DNA from: Candidatus Poseidoniales archaeon
GTDB lineage: Archaea; Thermoplasmatota; Poseidoniia; Poseidoniales; Poseidoniaceae
DNA: 64,000 nt
Direction of reading: 5' to 3'
NCBI GenBank assembly: GCA_038150305.1
Contig: JAYOTG010000001.1
Coordinates: forward strand, 97,286 to 161,285
Part shown: piece by piece, positions 14,058 through 22,237 of the stretch
Position numbering within the stretch: position 1 is the first letter of the stretch
How the letters are laid out: each line of letters begins with the position of its first letter
Made by a program: the position numbers and the translations under genes
The notes under the pieces: model-generated
Seen by the model: only the letters and a program-made list of their open reading frames with translations
Told to the model about the DNA's origin: nothing
The model's database searches: none

Positions 14058-16130
14058 GTGGAAGGCGTCTACCTGACGTGGATGATCAGCGCGCTCGCGC
14101 TGGGCGTGGTGCTTCTTCCCGTCTATGCACCGCCATGGAGCCGCTTAACGCTCTCGGGCTTCGTGGATTTCATCCGCCGGTATTGGGTGCACGTCCTCCT
14201 GCTGTTCATGATCTACAACGCCAAGGACTTCCTCGATCAGGTGGATCGAATCCTGATGGCCAACACCAACCTCGACATGACGGCGTGGATTTACGCCATT
14301 GAAGGCGACTTGGTGTTGCGGATACAGGAGGCGTTCGAAGCCAGGTGGTTGTCCATCGCCTTGACCCACTTCTACGTGGCTGGATTCATGTTCATCTGCT
14401 ACGTTTCTGTCTTCTATGTCGCGTACTTTGACGACCGCTGGATGGCCGACCGCATCGTGCTGTCGATCGCGTGGGTCTACATTTTGGCCGTGCCCTTCTA
14501 CCTCTTCTTCAACGTCCGCGTGACAGGAGACGTCATCCCAGGCATGGAGACCATCGCCTACGATTTGACCCCTGAAATCGCGGATTGGTTCCGCCGCATC
14601 GATCCCTTCACCAACGGGATGCCCAGCCTGCACATCGGCATCCCCTTTGTCGTGTGGCTGTGCCTGCTTCGGTACGACGAAGACCGTCGCTGGACACGGT
14701 ACCGCCACACGGTATTGCTCTACACCGTGATCACCGCGTTCACCATCCTGTACCTCGGCATCCACTGGATTTCCGACATCGTCGGAGGCCTGCTCATCGC
14801 GGCAGGAGCAGTAGCCATGACCGAGCGAACTGTGGGCTTCGTCTGGCGCATCGGCGACGAGCGAACCATGAACGCGCGCCTCGCCTCGCTGTTGACGCAG
14901 CCAAAGGTCGCGCTTGGCGCCCTTGTTGCGCCCGTCAAAACACAGCTCAAGCGGTTCCGCACGCCAGGGGCCCGCGAATCACGGTTGGGACTCGGCGTGG
15001 TGCTGTTCCTGGTCCTCTTGGTCGTGACCTACGATTTGACGCACCAAGCGTTGCCGGCCAGCGGCATTGAAGCCCCCGAGGGGGCCGCAGCCGCGGACGG
15101 TTGGGTGGCGACCATGGACAACCGAAGCGGCGTGCATACGGTGGTTCTGAACGACTTGTCAACCCCCGACGTGGTCATCGAGGTCGCGCAACCAAACATG
15201 ACGGAGGGCGACTTGGTCGCGCTTGACGGGAGACACGTGGTGATGGCCAATGCGTCGGTGATCCGGACCGTCCGGACCGACGCCCCACAAACGGTCACCA
15301 TGGAGACACCGATTGAAGCCAAACCGTCCATCCTGACCCTCGCCGACGGACCTCAGGGAACCGTGGTGCTGGCGGTCATCAACGGCACCCTTCACGGGTG
15401 GACGATGCTTGGTGAAGACGCGGTGCTGCCTGCTCAGGCGTCAGGCGTGATCGCGCTGGTCACCAACGGGGCGGAGTTGGCGTGGACCACGGAAGACCAG
15501 CCGCTCGACGTCCGCATGGCTCGCTTGGGGACCAGCGGGGCGTTGACCGTCCCGCTCAACGCCAGTGCTACACCCGAGCAAGAAGCCGAAATGGCCGGCT
15601 GGGGCCTTCCCACAGACGTGGACAACGGGACCGTCATCGATCTTGAACTGAGCCAAACGCATCTTGTGGCCGTGGTGAACGTCAGCACCGTGGACCGCCT
15701 GGTGCTCTACGAGCGCGCGCTGGGCACCATGCATCTCATCGGGGACGGCAAGTACTCTGCCGCCGACCCTGCCCTTGGCGCGGACGTGCTCGCCTACACC
15801 GGATGGGACCACCTCAATCCGATCAACCCCGAAACCAAATACCTCGACAGCGAAATCCATCTTCACGACCTCTCCACCAACCTTACGGAGGTCTTGACCG
15901 CTGACACGCGAGACCAGTGGTCACCAACGGTGCTTGAGGAGCACATCATCTACCTGGAACGAAGCGCGTCCGATGAGACGTCGGTCCGGATTTACAGCCG
16001 AGAAGTGGTGCTCCAGCCGTACTCAAATGCCGTGCTTCAAGTCGGTCTGATGGTCATGCTCGCGTTGACCTTCGCCTACGTGGTTCAGATTCAACAGGAA
16101 GCGCGCGGACGGCGCACTGAGGAAGAATGA
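14058..16130 (+). CDS. PAP2/Aur1-like (inositol-phosphorylceramide synthase-like) membrane phosphotransferase fused to an extracellular beta-rich domain
   Basis: NGMPSLH and YLGIHWISD PAP2 motifs in a multi-TM N-terminal half, then a beta-propeller-like region and a C-terminal TM. Confidence 0.75.
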   Translation: MEGVYLTWMISALALGVVLLPVYAPPWSRLTLSGFVDFIRRYWVHVLLLFMIYNAKDFLDQVDRILMANTNLDMTAWIYAIEGDLVLRIQEAFEARWLSIALTHFYVAGFMFICYVSVFYVAYFDDRWMADRIVLSIAWVYILAVPFYLFFNVRVTGDVIPGMETIAYDLTPEIADWFRRIDPFTNGMPSLHIGIPFVVWLCLLRYDEDRRWTRYRHTVLLYTVITAFTILYLGIHWISDIVGGLLIAAGAVAMTERTVGFVWRIGDERTMNARLASLLTQPKVALGALVAPVKTQLKRFRTPGARESRLGLGVVLFLVLLVVTYDLTHQALPASGIEAPEGAAAADGWVATMDNRSGVHTVVLNDLSTPDVVIEVAQPNMTEGDLVALDGRHVVMANASVIRTVRTDAPQTVTMETPIEAKPSILTLADGPQGTVVLAVINGTLHGWTMLGEDAVLPAQASGVIALVTNGAELAWTTEDQPLDVRMARLGTSGALTVPLNASATPEQEAEMAGWGLPTDVDNGTVIDLELSQTHLVAVVNVSTVDRLVLYERALGTMHLIGDGKYSAADPALGADVLAYTGWDHLNPINPETKYLDSEIHLHDLSTNLTEVLTADTRDQWSPTVLEEHIIYLERSASDETSVRIYSREVVLQPYSNAVLQVGLMVMLALTFAYVVQIQQEARGRRTEEE

Positions 16131-16133
16131 GCC

Positions 16134-16802
16134 TCAACCGTGGTAGCGTACACGGCTTCGGACCTGAGACAAGCGGTCCAAAACGTCCGCCGCTGACGGG
16201 ACCATCCCGCCCGGTGCTTCGGTCTGTCCTGCATGCTCGGAGTCAAGGTATCCCGCTTCGAGGGCGGCCATGGCACCTGGACGGTCTGGGTGACTGGCAC
16301 CGAGCACCTCGTCCAACACGTGAAGGTCGATGCCGTAGCGCTCGAGGTCGTACTCGATGGACGCAAGACCGAAATCGATGAGCACCACACTTCCATCCTC
16401 GCGGATCATGATGTTGTTCGTGGACAGGTCGCCATGCGTCACCGCCTGTGCGTGAAGGTGACGAACCGCTCCTCCGACCGCGTGCAACAAGGGCTCGACA
16501 TCGGAAACCGATGCATCACGGAGCACCTCGATGAGCGGGCGTCCCTCGACGTGCTCCAGCACAAGACGATCTTCATCCACGTCCGCGTCCAGCAGCGCTG
16601 GAACGGGCAAACCCGAGCGATGGAGGCGCAGGAGGATTCGAGCCTCGGCCAGCATGCGTTGGCGCCCAAGGCGCTCGTCGAGGTCAGGATGGCGCCATCC
16701 TCGGGCTCGACGCTGCTTCATGACCGCTGGAAGTCCAAGCCATGTGCCCGCGGTCACCTCGGCTTCCGCGCCGAGGTGCAGACGAGCCTCTGGCTCGAAC
16801 AC
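16134..16802 (-). CDS. bud32: KEOPS complex kinase/ATPase Bud32
   Basis: GAEA, K.R....RHP.LD, HGDL.T.NI, IDFGL and DL.VL motifs. Start set at GTG 16802. Confidence 0.9.
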   Translation of the reverse strand: MFEPEARLHLGAEAEVTAGTWLGLPAVMKQRRARGWRHPDLDERLGRQRMLAEARILLRLHRSGLPVPALLDADVDEDRLVLEHVEGRPLIEVLRDASVSDVEPLLHAVGGAVRHLHAQAVTHGDLSTNNIMIREDGSVVLIDFGLASIEYDLERYGIDLHVLDEVLGASHPDRPGAMAALEAGYLDSEHAGQTEAPGGMVPSAADVLDRLSQVRSRVRYHG

Positions 16803-16806
16803 CGGC

Positions 16807-17163
16807 TCACCACGCTCCGTGGACGTAGGGCTTGCCGCCGTCCGGGTCCTGGCGGTTGGCGAGGGCCCACAAGCGCTCAAAGCGGTAAATGCCGGAGCTG
16901 CAGCCTGAGTCTTCCCAATCGAAGGTGAGCGCGTAATTGCCGACCGTCCGGACCGTTGGTTTGGTCGGAGGCAAGGCTTCCACTTGACGGCGGAGCGTCT
17001 TGCTCGTCTCGTCGTCGTTTCGGGATGGGGCGCACTTTGCGCAAGGGCAAGCGTGGCGGAGGTCGTCGTACGAGACGGTGAATTCCGAACCGTCATCATA
17101 GGTCAGGTGGAGGTCCACCTGGCGGCGCTCAAGGCGGGTCAGGGTCGGCATCGCTTCGCTCAC
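16807..17163 (-). CDS. DUF971 / GBBH-like N-terminal domain protein
   Basis: LR.ACPCA.C, VGNYAL.F.W.D and G.SSGIY..E.L motifs. GAGGTG SD lies 7 nt before GTG 17163. Confidence 0.85.
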   Translation of the reverse strand: MSEAMPTLTRLERRQVDLHLTYDDGSEFTVSYDDLRHACPCAKCAPSRNDDETSKTLRRQVEALPPTKPTVRTVGNYALTFDWEDSGCSSGIYRFERLWALANRQDPDGGKPYVHGAW

Positions 17164-17174
17164 GAAGGCTCACC

Positions 17175-18182
17175 TCACACGATTTCGAGGCCCGTTCCAC
17201 CGGACTGACCGATCTGGGCTTGAATGGCCGCAACCACGTCAGCGAAAGCGACGGACGCGGCGCCTTCAGGGTCGCTGACGATGCGGTGCACCCCATCGTC
17301 TCCCCCGCGCACGAAACCGGGGTCAAAGGGCAACGCGCCGAGGAAGGGGATGCCGAATTCTTCGGCGGTCGCCGCGCCACCGCCTTGCTTGAACAGGTCG
17401 AGGGTCACTTGGAAGGCACCGTCATCGTCGGCGGTGGCGCTGTGGGTTCGACCGCCGGGTCCCGCGATCTGAACCTCGGTGCCCGCGGGCGCGCGTCCAT
17501 GCAGGGTGTACCCGCTCATGTTCTCGACCACGCCAAGCACCGGGACCTTGAGCGACTCCGCGAAGCCGATGGACTTGCGGCTGTCGAGCAGGGCCACGTC
17601 CTGCGGCGTGGTCACGATGACCATGCCGTCAATGTCCGGCAGGGACTGCGCCACCGTCAGCGGCTCGTCAGACGTGCCCGGCGGGAAATCGATGACGAGG
17701 TAATCGAGGTCGCCCCACTCCACGTCGCCAATGAACTGCTGAATCGCGCCGAGCTTGATGGGGCCGCGCCACACCACGGGGGTGTCGTCGTCGTCCAGCA
17801 GGAAAGCCATCGAGATGACCTTCACGCCGAGGTGGCCTTGGGCGGGATGGATGCGCCCTTCTTCGACGTGGAGGCGTCGGCCGTCAAGTCCCATCATTTT
17901 GGGCACGTTTGGACCGGTGATGTCGATGTCGAGGATGCCCACCTTGTGCCCTTGCTGAGCCAAGGAGAGGGCCAATCCGGTGGAGACGGTGGACTTCCCA
18001 ACGCCGCCTTTCCCCGAGAGCACCATGATCTTGTGTTTGATGCGCTTCCCGAGGGACTGCATGGCCATCTTGCGCTTCATTTGCGCGTAAGCCTGTTCCA
18101 TCTGGCGCTGTTCCTGAGGCGAGGGCCCGTCGGGAGCGGGGCCATCGCTTGGCGTGTGGGTGGACACAGGGGAGCCTGCCAT
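17175..18182 (-). CDS. Mrp/NBP35 (ApbC) family P-loop ATPase, cysteine-free variant
   Basis: [34 protein letters not shown] and ENMS motifs. Confidence 0.92.
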
Positions 18183-18284: not shown

Positions 18285-18665
18285 ATGCACCTTGCCTTTG
18301 TCTGTGTGGGCAACTCCTGTCGCTCCCAATTGGCGGAAGCCATCGCTCGTTCGATGGGGTTCGAGGCCTCGAGTGCGGGCACCCATCCGGCCTCGGCCGT
18401 GGCGGAACATGCGCTCACGGTCCTGAACAATCGCGGCATCGACGCGTCAGGCTTGCATCCAAAAGGCATCGAGGCCGTGGACGCGAAGGCTGCTGACATG
18501 ATCATCTCGATGGGCTGTGGAGTCTCTTGTCCAGCGCTGCCCATTACCGAAGACTGGGGGCTTGACGACCCGGTTGGCGGGCCGTTGTCCCTGTACGAAG
18601 CGACCGCCGACGAGATCACGCGGCGCCTTGAGGCGATCCGCGAGGCTCACTCTTCTTCGTCCTGA
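18285..18665 (+). CDS. arsC: Low-molecular-weight phosphatase / thioredoxin-type arsenate reductase
   Basis: FVCVGNSCRSQLAE, SAGT, GC..CP and W.LDDP motifs. Confidence 0.85.
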   Translation: MHLAFVCVGNSCRSQLAEAIARSMGFEASSAGTHPASAVAEHALTVLNNRGIDASGLHPKGIEAVDAKAADMIISMGCGVSCPALPITEDWGLDDPVGGPLSLYEATADEITRRLEAIREAHSSSS

Positions 18666-19165: not shown

Positions 19166-22100
19166 TCAGCGGTCCCCAAACCGGTCACCGCCGGCGCCTT
19201 CGCGGCGTGACAAACCGACGAGCAAGCCAACGACCACCACCACGAGGAGGCCCAAACCACCCCACAACAGCACGGGTGAAATCTCGTCGTTCTGGCCGCC
19301 TCCACCACCGTCTCCTCCGGCGTCGAGCCGCATGACGGTTGAGACCGTAGGGGCGACTTCCCCGTACGTGTCCGATGCGCGAATGAGCAGCTCATGGGCC
19401 CCGAGAGGGGTGCCCGTGCGGACGTCAAGGCATGCGGACCAGACGTCGTCGCCTGCTGCCTCGTCTGGGCCGAGGCCGTCGTTCCTCATCGAGGCCCAGC
19501 CTGCTTGTTCGCCAAGCGGCGTTAGCGTCCCTCGATTGATTTGGACGGCGTTGATGCCGTCTTGGTCGGTCACCTGCACGGTGTAGGGGACGCACGGGTC
19601 GCCTCGGCTTCCTTCATCGACCACAAGGGCCTCTGCCACGATGTCCGGGGCATCGTTCAACACGAGCAACCGTGACCAGCCGAGGTCAGCATCGTCCGGT
19701 TCGAGGAAAGGACCGACCAAGCCGCCTGACGCGCCGACGAGGACGGTGCGTGTGACCACCGCCGACGCGCCTTCTTGGTCTTCAACCGCCCAAGGCAGTG
19801 TCATCCAACCCGGTTGCACGCCTGAGGGGAGGGTGAATGCACCGCTCCATGTGGTGGTGCCGCTCACCTGAGCCAGGGGCACCAGCGCACCGCCAGACAG
19901 GCCGCTGAGGTCGACGGCCACGGAGGCCACGCCATGTTGGTCGACCACGTTGGCCTCCACAATCACCGCGCCGCCGCGCTGCACGCGGTCGGGCACCAGG
20001 TCGATGCTGATGATTCGAGGTGCAGGGTTGTCGATCTGCACCGTCGCGTTGTCGTAGGTCGTTGAGGTGAACGCGTCAACCACCGTCACAGGGGCGCTGA
20101 ACACGCCTGTGGTGATGTCGAGCACCGTGAGCGTGGTGGTCCAGCGGTCGTCGTCGACGGCTTGGTCGCCGTCTTGGCCACGATCGTTGAGCACCCGCAC
20201 GCCCAAGCCGAGCGCGGTCAAGTCGACCTCGACCCGCTCAAGGTTCCAATCCACGTCCACGACCTCGGCGACGAGCAGGCTGCTTCGTGCGCCCTCCGCG
20301 GCAGCCAATCCGTTCGGTTGGCTCAAGCCGAGGAAGACCGGAGGCGTGTTGCCCTCTGCGGTCACGACCGAAGGCGACAACACCCTGGCCAAGGTCTGTG
20401 ACTCGTTCAGCCAAGCGGTCTCCTCGCCTTCACCGTAAGGCACCTCGAGGCTCCGGGTCACGGAGGTGGAGAGCCCTTTGAGCGGACCTACGGCCACGAG
20501 GTGTCCGTGTGCTGTGCCATCGAATTCGTTGTAGGTCCCGGACCACTGCACGGTCTCGAAGGTCCGTCCGTCGGCGTCGTCGGTGCTGTAGGCCAGCACG
20601 TCCACGACGAGCTCCATGCCGGCTTGCTCAGCCAACAGGAAACGGTCGCCGGGGGCCGCAGGAATGGGCATCAATCCGGTTTCACGACCGACGGTCACGT
20701 TGCCGAGCCCTTCCACGGGCTCGGGAGCCTCAGGCTCGCGTGGAATTGGCGAGCGCTCAGGCTTCTCATCGCCTTCGGACGGGTCAGGACCGGACTGCTG
20801 CCAAATCACGCGGATGGTGCGGTTGTCGTGGTCGATGTCCACCACGTCGTAGGACCACGATTCGTTGTGGTGGGCGCCAAGGCCCTGATTGCCAAAGAAG
20901 GAGCCTCCGTTGAGGCCGGTGAAGTTGAACCATTCTTCCTGATGGATGATGTGCACCCGATGGACAACGCCTGAGGCGTTTTCTGCGTCCAGCGTTGTTT
21001 CGATGTCGCGGAGGATCCCGAACGTGCCCTCCGCGTCGCCGGTCAAAACCCCGTCCACGTGGAGGCGGTCGGCCACGACCTCTCCGTCCTCGCTCCACTG
21101 GTGAAAGTCGTGAACGGTCCCGTTGATGGCCACCGTCGCGTTTTCATCCTGCTCGACGAAACCAAAGGTTCCCGAACCACGGATGCGTTCGAGTTGGTCC
21201 ACGCGGGCGCCGTCTTCCCAACGCTGCAGGGATTGGAAGGCTTCGAGGTCGAGGTCCATGCGGGTCCCGTCCTCGATGAGCGTGAAGTCGGCCGTGGCCT
21301 CGATCTGCTGGTGGTCGAGCCGACGCACACCGTCTTCGTCCCACAGTTCAAGCACGAGCACCGCAACGGTTCCGTCGATGTCGAGCGACCCTTCGCTCTC
21401 GTTGGCATCGATGGTGTGAACATCCAGTGAGCCGTTCGCCTCGATGCGGAGACGTTCGCTCACGAGGCCGTTGATCACCGAGCGGTTCAGGGTCGCATCG
21501 CTGACGGTAGCGGCAACTTCTGTTCGCGCTCCGTCAATGTCGTCGATGAGCGTCAATGTGCCAAAGCCCGAGGCATCGAAAACGCTGGCTTGGAGGACGC
21601 CGGCCGTGCTGGATTCGTTCCGCCACACCCGGTCCAGGACGAGGTCGAGGTCAATGGTCGAGTTGTCGGCGGTCTCGAGCATCACCAAACGGCCGTCTCC
21701 AAGTTCCCACGCCGTCAGCATTTCACCCACGCGCTCTTGCCAGCCATGGCCGTCAAATTCGAGGAAGAAACGCTGCGGAGCGCCGTCGTTCACGGTGCTC
21801 TGGTCCAAGGTCCAATTCGATGAAGTGGTGATTTCGTGGTCGGCGAGGGGCTGGTTCCAGCGACCGACCTGCACCGTTCGCTCCACGGTGGGCCAGTCCA
21901 CTGGAACGCCGTCCATGCCCACGACATCCACCACGAGGTCCACCGTGTCGTTCCACGCCAGCGATTGGTTCACGACCAAGGTCGCGACCGACCGGCCGTC
22001 CTCCACCGACCATGTCGTGGTCAGGTTGGTGTCGAGCGGGTTGCCGTTGCGCGAGTGGACCAGATTGACCTCGATGTCGTAGGATGCATCGTCGCCCATG

Positions 22101-22237
22101 ACCAAGCGGTAAGCGTGGTCGTCCGCCTCGTGGCCCCAGTCCACGTGCAAGGCTGGACTGGACGCAGGTTCCTCAGCGTTGACCGGGAGGACCGCCACCA
22201 CCAGGAGCAGAAGCATCAGCAGGGCACGCCGTTGCAT
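19166..22237 (-). CDS. Large cell-surface protein (signal peptide, beta-rich domains, choice-of-anchor-X-like Ig repeats, C-terminal TM anchor)
   Basis: N-terminal signal, the motifs LNDRGQDGDQAVDDDRWT and MRNDGLGPDEAAGDDVWS, and a Gly linker, TM and basic tail at the C-terminus. Confidence 0.75.
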   Translation of the reverse strand: MQRRALLMLLLLVVAVLPVNAEEPASSPALHVDWGHEADDHAYRLVMGDDASYDIEVNLVHSRNGNPLDTNLTTTWSVEDGRSVATLVVNQSLAWNDTVDLVVDVVGMDGVPVDWPTVERTVQVGRWNQPLADHEITTSSNWTLDQSTVNDGAPQRFFLEFDGHGWQERVGEMLTAWELGDGRLVMLETADNSTIDLDLVLDRVWRNESSTAGVLQASVFDASGFGTLTLIDDIDGARTEVAATVSDATLNRSVINGLVSERLRIEANGSLDVHTIDANESEGSLDIDGTVAVLVLELWDEDGVRRLDHQQIEATADFTLIEDGTRMDLDLEAFQSLQRWEDGARVDQLERIRGSGTFGFVEQDENATVAINGTVHDFHQWSEDGEVVADRLHVDGVLTGDAEGTFGILRDIETTLDAENASGVVHRVHIIHQEEWFNFTGLNGGSFFGNQGLGAHHNESWSYDVVDIDHDNRTIRVIWQQSGPDPSEGDEKPERSPIPREPEAPEPVEGLGNVTVGRETGLMPIPAAPGDRFLLAEQAGMELVVDVLAYSTDDADGRTFETVQWSGTYNEFDGTAHGHLVAVGPLKGLSTSVTRSLEVPYGEGEETAWLNESQTLARVLSPSVVTAEGNTPPVFLGLSQPNGLAAAEGARSSLLVAEVVDVDWNLERVEVDLTALGLGVRVLNDRGQDGDQAVDDDRWTTTLTVLDITTGVFSAPVTVVDAFTSTTYDNATVQIDNPAPRIISIDLVPDRVQRGGAVIVEANVVDQHGVASVAVDLSGLSGGALVPLAQVSGTTTWSGAFTLPSGVQPGWMTLPWAVEDQEGASAVVTRTVLVGASGGLVGPFLEPDDADLGWSRLLVLNDAPDIVAEALVVDEGSRGDPCVPYTVQVTDQDGINAVQINRGTLTPLGEQAGWASMRNDGLGPDEAAGDDVWSACLDVRTGTPLGAHELLIRASDTYGEVAPTVSTVMRLDAGGDGGGGGQNDEISPVLLWGGLGLLVVVVVGLLVGLSRREGAGGDRFGDR

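Follow-up and report, generated by a model that had tools for sequence, protein, structure and literature searches.

A cysteine-free Mrp ATPase with a β-insert in place of its cluster-binding loop, and its four-cysteine DUF971 neighbour in Poseidoniales

We analysed a 64,000-nucleotide stretch of the genome of a Candidatus Poseidoniales archaeon (GenBank assembly GCA_038150305.1, contig JAYOTG010000001.1, positions 97,286 to 161,285; hereafter the window, in whose own numbering all coordinates are given), in which a P-loop ATPase of the Mrp/NBP35 family, a small DUF971 protein and the kinase Bud32 are encoded in this order, head to tail on the minus strand (Table 1). The CXXC motif, one of the two signatures of the family, bridges a [4Fe-4S] cluster according to the available part of PMC6345978; in the window protein the loop that should hold this motif is replaced by a folded β-insert and no cysteine is present anywhere, for which reason the protein, as judged from its sequence, cannot ligate the usual bridging [4Fe-4S] cluster. 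We consider the chances about even that this Mrp acts as a cluster-less ATP switch working together with DUF971 in the maturation of iron-sulfur (Fe-S) proteins; whether the pair is the Poseidoniales version of the Mrp-DUF971 partnership known from the HCF101 fusion and from bacterial cofitness data is, in our estimation, likewise finely balanced.

Membership of the ATPase in its family is indicated by a match to the Pfam model PF10609 with an E-value of 7.7e-88 (294.5 bits against a gathering score of 27.1), and as this was the one full-length PF10609 gene of the window genome assembly (1.92 Mb, 85.6% complete), it is the sole true Mrp/NBP35-family member found there; a match was also present in 40 of the 41 related genomes searched. 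Residues 57–64 read GKGGVGKS and agree with the deviant Walker A definition GKGGhGK[ST] given in the accessible text of PMC6345978. In an alignment of 80 Mrp sequences, K58, G59–G62 and K63 were invariant, as were D85, D87, D165, the switch aspartates, Walker B and the PPG and ENM motifs, whilst the ENMS...GGG frame is kept in the window protein. Given this invariance of the nucleotide-binding and dimer motifs, both the ATPase and the dimer interface look intact. The AlphaFold2 (AF2) model of the protein has a predicted local distance difference test score (pLDDT) of 88.3 and, when used as a whole in a Foldseek search (the insert was not queried by itself), gave ApbC (8zkc, 3.6e-24), AF2382 (2ph1, 3.5e-22) and Cfd1 (6g2g, 9.7e-22) as best matches, together with a weaker match to the Mrp/MinD-type HypB of Thermococcus (5aun and 3vx3, including HypAB complexes). 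The closest solved relatives by sequence were again ApbC, Cfd1 and AF2382 at about 1e-52, with HypB at 3e-30. The NCBIfam equivalog cut-offs were missed both for ApbC (207.9 against 348 bits) and for MrpORP (316.1 against 450), and Pfam gave no match of PF01883 (DUF59) on the window Mrp.

The departure from the family lies between ENMS and GGG. Alignments to the solved relatives 2ph1, 6g2g and 3kb1 end at residues 225–226 and restart at 262–263, leaving 36 residues in the window Mrp where the relatives have about 9. In the AF2 model this block forms strands at 225–230, 236–240, 246–250 and 256–261 with a pLDDT of 86–96. An earlier reading made from the sequence only had described a cysteine-free protein of 335 residues with an Ig-like insert at about 17395–17515 where the CxxC belongs, and both the lack of cysteine and the position of the insert are borne out (Table 1). 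As for its Ig-like character, the Big_6 model (PF17936) matches the insert with 23.8 bits, below the gathering score of 27.6, and over positions 12–58 of a profile of 83; Big_6 matches at E-values up to 0.01 were obtained for 26 of the 80 aligned Mrp family members, and the likeness amounts to half a domain at most. The 150 best Mrp representatives out of 1.84 billion proteins mostly show ENMSxxxCxxC with GGG following some 16 residues on; a minority lack the CxxC and keep a short loop, and a few carry a long insert. A separate observation concerns P0148, a protein of 1334 residues with two Mrp-type ATPase domains, neither of them with a CxxC, and a long unrelated region between the two.

The absence of cysteine is by itself not very improbable: the chance of finding none in 335 residues is P ~0.04 (cysteine making up about 1% of a rough set of window open reading frames (ORFs)), and 4 of the 41 long window ORFs are cysteine-free. 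What exceeds chance is the loss of the CxxC across the order. Our Poseidoniales set comprised 30 Mrp loci from 30 genomes (the families of the order are denoted f1, to which the window belongs, f2 and f3), and in all 30 orthologues the CxxC was absent and the insert present; 24 of them have no cysteine and 6 have a single one, at varying positions. At one locus in a single-contig relative (L022, G023:C1:1777267-1778270) the Mrp match is broken, with residues 1–296 in one frame and 280–335 in another that contains an in-frame TGA, which could stem from a frameshift or a sequencing error, or mark a pseudogene.

The neighbouring protein is matched by the Pfam model PF06155 (E 1.6e-16; 61.2 bits against a gathering score of 22.8) and is the single DUF971 protein encoded in the window genome. 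Cys39, Cys41 and Cys44 of its CPCAKC motif were invariant in 29 aligned DUF971 sequences, whilst the position of Cys88 is occupied by histidine in all 33 of the other proteins compared, namely the solved 2l6n, 3luu and 2l6p (3/3), 29 of 29 Planctomycetota domains and the G166 fusion described below. CxCAxC together with GC(S/N)SG was found in every Poseidoniales DUF971 examined (sets of 22 and 29), and the exchange of histidine for cysteine at the fourth ligand is specific to Poseidoniales in the sample compared. The AF2 model (pLDDT 87.2) matches the folds of 2l6n, 3luu and 2l6p with a probability of 1.00, but with weak E-values of 2.5e-3 to 1.8e-2 and query-normalised TM-scores (TMq) of 0.54–0.57; BBOX1 was also among the fold matches. 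The protein ends in the tail DPDGGKPYVHGAW, whose pattern DPDxG(K/R)xY(V/T)HGAW is present in all aligned f1 DUF971 proteins and lacking from those of f3. This tail could be a docking peptide for Mrp; the model confidence is low here, the final block having a pLDDT of 58 and residues 116–118 falling under 50.

The Mrp and DUF971 genes are closely spaced, with the stop codons at 17177–17175 (Mrp) and 16809–16807 (DUF971). The sequence-only reading had placed DUF971 11 nucleotides from Mrp with a Shine-Dalgarno motif of its own, and had noted CPCAKC and GCSSGIY with cysteine where its family usually has histidine; the spacer does contain GGTGA, and the cysteines are Cys39, Cys41, Cys44 and Cys88. 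The octamer GGTGAGCC occurs at 17167–17174 and again at 16804–16811, ahead of the GTG starts of DUF971 and Bud32, and at both starts overlaps or abuts the upstream stop codon. Across the order, a search for DUF971 succeeded in 120 of 121 genomes. It follows Mrp in 22/22 f1 loci, a further 21 f1 loci reached from the DUF971 side also have Mrp adjacent, and the genes stay closely spaced in no fewer than 10 f1 genera. In a single RNA study, contigs from two of the libraries run across the junction of the two genes (X5, 17086–17320; X8, 17115–17265) and give a weak hint of co-transcription; the junction of DUF971 and Bud32 is spanned by no contig, which speaks neither for nor against a common transcript there. 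Among the RNA runs, X1 has the largest share and probably derives from DNA.

In order to assess the pair as a complex, a structure prediction was made with Mrp (residues 40–335) and DUF971 at two chains apiece and with our own separate alignments, a set-up unlike that of the calibration. The score was 0.43 (runs of 0.43, 0.44 and 0.41), against 0.00 for the best of three controls, and was rated by the tool as weak support; the pLDDT of the partner was at least 77, and agreement between runs came to 18% of contacts or more. When the tool was calibrated, 116 of 157 solved complexes attained its mark, as did 2 of 215 mismatched pairs; scores of up to 0.60 account for only 18 of those 157, and for both of the mismatches that pass.

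Outside the order, inserts of this kind were sought in a sample of 151 genomes of Thermoplasmatota, in which alignments through the insert were obtained outside Poseidoniales for just two genomes, members of family f29; their Mrps (P0127 among the representatives) have an insert of this kind and at most one cysteine. In the same sample DUF971 was present in 25/25 Poseidoniales genomes and in two others, G166 and G199, with 0/124 among the remainder. In G166, which belongs to the same class as Poseidoniales, a single ORF of 469 residues (L168:2446-3855) combines DUF59 with an Mrp that has CPEC and a DUF971 that has CPCAGC and DGH, and is a true HCF101-like fusion; in G199 (C43:971-2074) the Mrp and DUF971 matches lie within one frame of 494 residues and appear to form a fusion of the same DUF59-Mrp(CxxC)-DUF971(His) make-up. 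The G166 fusion groups with bacterial-type Mrps in the tree and may represent a bacterial acquisition or a misbinned contig. Further afield, a Planctomycetota lineage including Rohdeia mirabilis has an insert-type Mrp fused to DUF59 as its sole Mrp (78 of 80 loci, the other two not having been parsed), and DUF971 is found with Pfam in 4 of 5 of its genomes, unlinked to Mrp and of the histidine type. A lineage from marine metagenomes typified by P0187 (L200–L279) encodes a DUF59-Mrp with insert in 79 of 80 loci, with 0–2 cysteines per protein; the β-insert is longer and variable here.

In a rapidly built maximum-likelihood tree covering 84 Mrp cores, from which the insert columns had been removed, all 33 Poseidoniales rows fell in one clade (Shimodaira-Hasegawa-like approximate likelihood-ratio test (SH-aLRT) 100) within the archaeal CPHC-type Mrps. 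The Planctomycetota insert-type Mrps and the G166 fusion, itself a long branch, lie across a split (SH-aLRT 100) from Poseidoniales, and the f29 sequences form a separate clade. A single clade of insert-type Mrps spread by gene transfer, modelled by forcing all 46 insert-bearing rows together, was rejected in the approximately unbiased (AU) test (log-likelihood difference 87, p-AU 0.004; the tree had been seen before the test was run). The insert therefore arose, or was transferred as a module, more than once, and insert-bearing Mrps outside Poseidoniales exist in at least three lineages that are not one clade. An origin of the Poseidoniales pair by splitting of an HCF101-like gene finds no support in the tree, the Mrp core grouping with the archaeal CPHC-type Mrps and away from the G166 fusion; the term "split HCF101", which the sequence-only reading had used for this locus, thus survives as an analogy and not as a statement of descent.

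The mechanism that we favour for a Mrp-DUF971 partnership would run as follows. Mrp would serve as an ATP-gated dimeric switch, in which the two inserts meet on the dimer axis, where they are expected because the CxxC loops meet there in solved relatives, and would form a protein-binding platform instead of a cluster site. DUF971, with a Cys4 site of mononuclear type that may hold Zn, Fe or an Fe-S cluster, would be its partner and contribute the sole metal site of the pair that is built on cysteines. The two would come in at a late stage of Fe-S protein maturation, after the SufBD system: SufB and SufD are encoded in the window genome with a DUF59 protein next to them, as is a single A-type carrier. 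A functional link of this kind has precedent in bacteria, where a DUF971 protein named "FeS cluster maintenance protein" by Price et al. shows cofitness with Mrp in the accessible part of that preprint (bioRxiv 10.1101/072470).

Several observations weigh against this proposal. Mrp and DUF971 are unlinked in f3 (0/8 loci) and in f2, where they lie on different contigs, and are 127–134 kb apart in two single-contig genomes (G037, G039); in f3 DUF971 is instead found upstream of Pus10 (4/4 loci). Within the phylum, the co-occurrence of Mrp and DUF971 is a single evolutionary event and not replicated evidence. No DUF971 was found in either of the two f29 genomes (0/2; 93–94% complete, searched with the Pfam model and our own profile), none lies within 5 kb of Mrp in the Planctomycetota lineage (0/80 loci; tblastn, which is insensitive at 27–30% identity) and none within 4 kb in the P0187-like lineage (0/80 loci, three queries). 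Of the four insert-bearing lineages seen, three thus lack a DUF971 linked to Mrp, and in one of these (f29) no DUF971 was found at all. Since the insert-type Planctomycetota have DUF971 of the histidine type, the change from histidine to cysteine does not track the insert. Finally, a complex score of 0.43 lies in a band where, by the tool's own account, errors outnumber correct calls except for guesses that were already likely, and the role of the insert on the dimer axis is one that we infer, the prediction having reported no interface. Comparison with the proposals of the sequence-only reading therefore gives a divided result. No orthologue with a CxxC was encountered (0/30) and linkage was complete in f1, but the pair is unlinked in f2 and f3, an outcome which had been named as speaking against the idea; the predicted complex scored above its best control, but in the low-scoring band. 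Of the two-component scaffold, the link between Mrp and DUF971 is upheld by the fusions, the cofitness, the f1 adjacency and the weak complex score, whilst the takeover of the cluster by DUF971 is weakened by f29 and by the ordinary, unlinked DUF971 proteins elsewhere.

This takeover in its strict form, in which the four cysteines of DUF971 hold a transferable Fe-S cluster, alone or as a dimer bridge, and Mrp merely drives its loading or release, we regard as unlikely. It would explain why the only conserved cysteines of the pair are in DUF971 and why the fourth ligand changed from histidine to cysteine solely in the clade whose Mrp lost the CxxC (histidine in 33/33 others), and the complex prediction lends it the same weak support. 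It also has a parallel in HCF101, for which the consulted section of PMC2805927 places Cys419, needed for the cluster, in a CX4C motif; the assignment of this motif to DUF971 is our own reading. Opposed to this are the geometry of the site, CxCxxC plus one distant ligand being of the mononuclear type, and the f29 genomes, which have a cysteine-poor insert-type Mrp and no DUF971 that we could find (0/2). The Cys3His site of the solved relative BBOX1, equivalent to the metal site of DUF971, holds a structural zinc, which also counts against a cluster held by DUF971. To this may be added that as late as 2025 DUF971 was said to have no defined function, at least in the available portion of PMC11838916. 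A greater, if still rather low, probability is given to there being no partnership at all: the adjacency in f1 would be inherited synteny, Mrp would act alone or with a DUF59/SufT protein or an A-type carrier, and DUF971 would have a separate role. The lack of linkage in two of the three families, the Pus10-associated DUF971 of f3 (4/4 loci), the three other lineages in which insert-type Mrps occur with no linked DUF971 or with none found, and the DUF59 protein and A-type carrier encoded elsewhere in the window genome are all in keeping with this. It leaves unexplained the natural Mrp-DUF971 fusions, the bacterial cofitness (as far as the preprint text was available), the tight spacing across at least 10 f1 genera, a DUF971 tail that is conserved only in f1 and a complex score that is non-zero when all controls gave 0.00.

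Two further explanations take Mrp away from Fe-S biogenesis or the module towards RNA. A re-purposed MinD/Mrp-type ATPase that serves some other metal or target with the help of a zinc-finger-like metallochaperone, in the manner of HypB and HypA, is suggested by the fold matches to the Thermococcus ATPase-type HypB and HypAB complexes, by the lack of cluster ligands in Mrp and by its scores below both NCBIfam cut-offs; we nevertheless hold it to be very improbable, as the protein is the only family member in its genome with a match in nearly all related genomes (40/41), falls within the archaeal CPHC-type group in the tree and is far closer to ApbC, Cfd1 and AF2382 than to HypB. The probability that the module is tied through Bud32 to the tRNA modification N6-threonylcarbamoyladenosine (t6A), made with the KEOPS (kinase, endopeptidase and other proteins of small size) complex, is slighter by far, and we give it next to no credence. 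It had been raised in the sequence-only reading, where Bud32 was correctly placed 4 nucleotides after DUF971; its identity follows from the NCBIfam model TIGR03724 (164 bits against a cut-off of 125), a Shine-Dalgarno-like GGTGA overlaps the DUF971 stop codon ahead of its GTG, and in f3 DUF971 adjoins the gene of another tRNA-modification enzyme, Pus10. Comparison across genomes gives the idea no support: Bud32 is adjacent at 11/11 loci of the window's genus and at 0/19 elsewhere, a PAP2 gene follows DUF971 in other f1 genera, and Bud32 and Pus10 are not known as Fe-S enzymes. We regard Bud32 as a neighbour peculiar to the genus that stands outside the module.

Returning to the proposed partnership, it can be extended to a broader and decidedly unlikely picture, in which insert-type Mrps are a recurrent, undescribed class that would have exchanged an oxygen-labile bridging cluster for two half-Ig β-modules, closing upon ATP binding into an inter-subunit sandwich that serves as docking platform. 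In Poseidoniales the cluster or iron would ride on the Cys4 DUF971, docked via its conserved C-terminal ...YVHGAW tail, DUF971 would be the hitherto unassigned cofactor-carrying module of HCF101-type proteins, and the recurrence of the exchange in marine plankton would reflect adaptation to oxic, iron-poor water.

Table 1. Features of the Mrp-DUF971 locus, in window coordinates.
Feature	Position	Strand	Description
PAP2-domain membrane protein	14058-16130	plus	690 residues; PF14378 and PF01569
Bud32 (KEOPS kinase/ATPase)	16134-16802	minus	GTG start; 222 residues, no cysteine
Stand-alone DUF971 (GBBH-like_N)	16807-17163	minus	GTG start; 118 residues, four cysteines
DUF971 C-terminal tail	16810-16848	minus	DPDGGKPYVHGAW; residues 106-118, kept only in family f1
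Cys88 in GCSSGIY of DUF971	16900-16902	minus	histidine in other DUF971 proteins
CPCAKC motif of DUF971	17032-17049	minus	Cys39, Cys41, Cys44
Mrp-DUF971 spacer	17164-17174	minus	11 nucleotides; GGTGA Shine-Dalgarno-like motif
Mrp/NBP35-family P-loop ATPase	17175-18182	minus	335 residues, no cysteine
β-insert replacing the CxxC cluster-binding loop	17400-17513	minus	Mrp residues 224-261, four strands
Deviant Walker A of Mrp	17991-18017	minus	residues 56-64, including signature lysine K58
Low-molecular-weight phosphatase/ArsC-like gene	18285-18665	plus	PF01451 1.3e-20; divergent from Mrp

The genes around the pair form a frame that is kept across the order, consisting of the low-molecular-weight phosphatase, Mrp and the PAP2 membrane protein, with DUF971 lying between the latter two in f1. 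In f3 the phosphatase gene adjoins Mrp in 3/3 loci scanned and the PAP2 gene follows Mrp in 3/3, whilst in other f1 genera the PAP2 gene was found after DUF971 in 7 of 10 downstream ORFs scanned. The downstream neighbour of DUF971 is a tRNA-modification gene in two lineages, Bud32 in the window's genus and Pus10 in f3, where at four loci (L065, L063, L049 and L047) DUF971 lies 40–80 nucleotides upstream of the gene for this tRNA pseudouridine synthase and is co-directional with it. At one locus of an f1 genus (L027:1-1101, G015) the quinolinate synthase NadA (PF02445, 1.1e-90), a [4Fe-4S] enzyme, is encoded on the opposite strand beside DUF971. Elsewhere in the window, positions 19166–22237 of the minus strand hold an acidic ORF of 1023 residues that starts with a signal-like segment and ends in a hydrophobic anchor, probably a cell-surface protein.

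What makes the locus of wider interest is that in an abundant archaeal order of the ocean the sole copy of a near-universal Fe-S-carrier ATPase cannot bind its cluster in the usual way, and that a structural exchange of this kind is met again in three or more other lineages. What DUF971 does has been a question ever since the characterisation of HCF101; as the ATPase has no cysteine and the DUF971 of 118 residues is a separate protein, the two roles are cleanly separated and could be examined by simple biochemistry, which offers a natural split system for the function of DUF971. In the literature searched we found nothing on archaea among work on DUF971 with Mrp, no study joining Poseidoniales or Marine Group II to ApbC, NBP35, DUF971 or HCF101, and no description of a cysteine-free or insert-type Mrp.

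If the partnership holds, the Poseidoniales pair would be a variant of the Mrp-DUF971 association known elsewhere. Amongst known systems, the nearest comparison is HCF101, the DUF59-Mrp-DUF971 protein of plastids, apicomplexans and bacteria of the Planctomycetes-Verrucomicrobia-Chlamydiae (PVC) group, which likewise joins an Mrp without CXXC to a CxCxxC DUF971; this background, together with the bridging role of the CxxC, had been drawn upon in the sequence-only reading and agrees with the accessible parts of PMC6345978, PMC2805927 and PMC7980591, the latter two describing HCF101 as lacking the CXXC and carrying DUF59 and DUF971. In contrast, the Poseidoniales pair is encoded by two genes, its Mrp has no DUF59 and carries the β-insert, and the fourth ligand of its DUF971 is cysteine and not histidine. 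HCF101 furthermore uses Cys128, Cys347 and Cys419 (PMC2805927, in the part available), whereas the window Mrp has no cysteine, and the Mrp core of Poseidoniales groups with archaeal CPHC-type Mrps and not with the HCF101-like G166 fusion. With ApbC, Mrp, Nbp35, Cfd1 and Ind1 (PF10609; 8zkc, 6g2g, 2ph1, 3kb1) the window protein shares its fold, Walker A, Walker B and the ENMS...GGG frame, but not the bridging CXXC loop, having 36 residues where these have about 9. The insert-less Mrps that lack a CxxC (P0179, P0183, P0195 and P0218) show that the family tolerates loss of the motif; they keep a short loop with 14–16 residues or so from ENMS to GGG, whereas the window Mrp has a folded module. Stand-alone DUF971 proteins of bacteria are likewise small and functionally linked to Mrp (Price et al., as far as available). 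They differ in having histidine as fourth ligand and in lacking the helix that is modelled at residues 51–62 of the DUF971 studied here. Their Mrp partners, in Shewanella and Pseudomonas, keep the CxxC. As a working analogy, Thermococcus HypB and HypA (5aun) also combine a family ATPase lacking metal-binding cysteines of its own with a small Cys4-zinc metallochaperone in an ATP-gated dimer; this system acts in the insertion of nickel into hydrogenase, however, HypA is not a DUF971 protein, and in sequence the window Mrp resembles HypB far less than it does ApbC and Cfd1.

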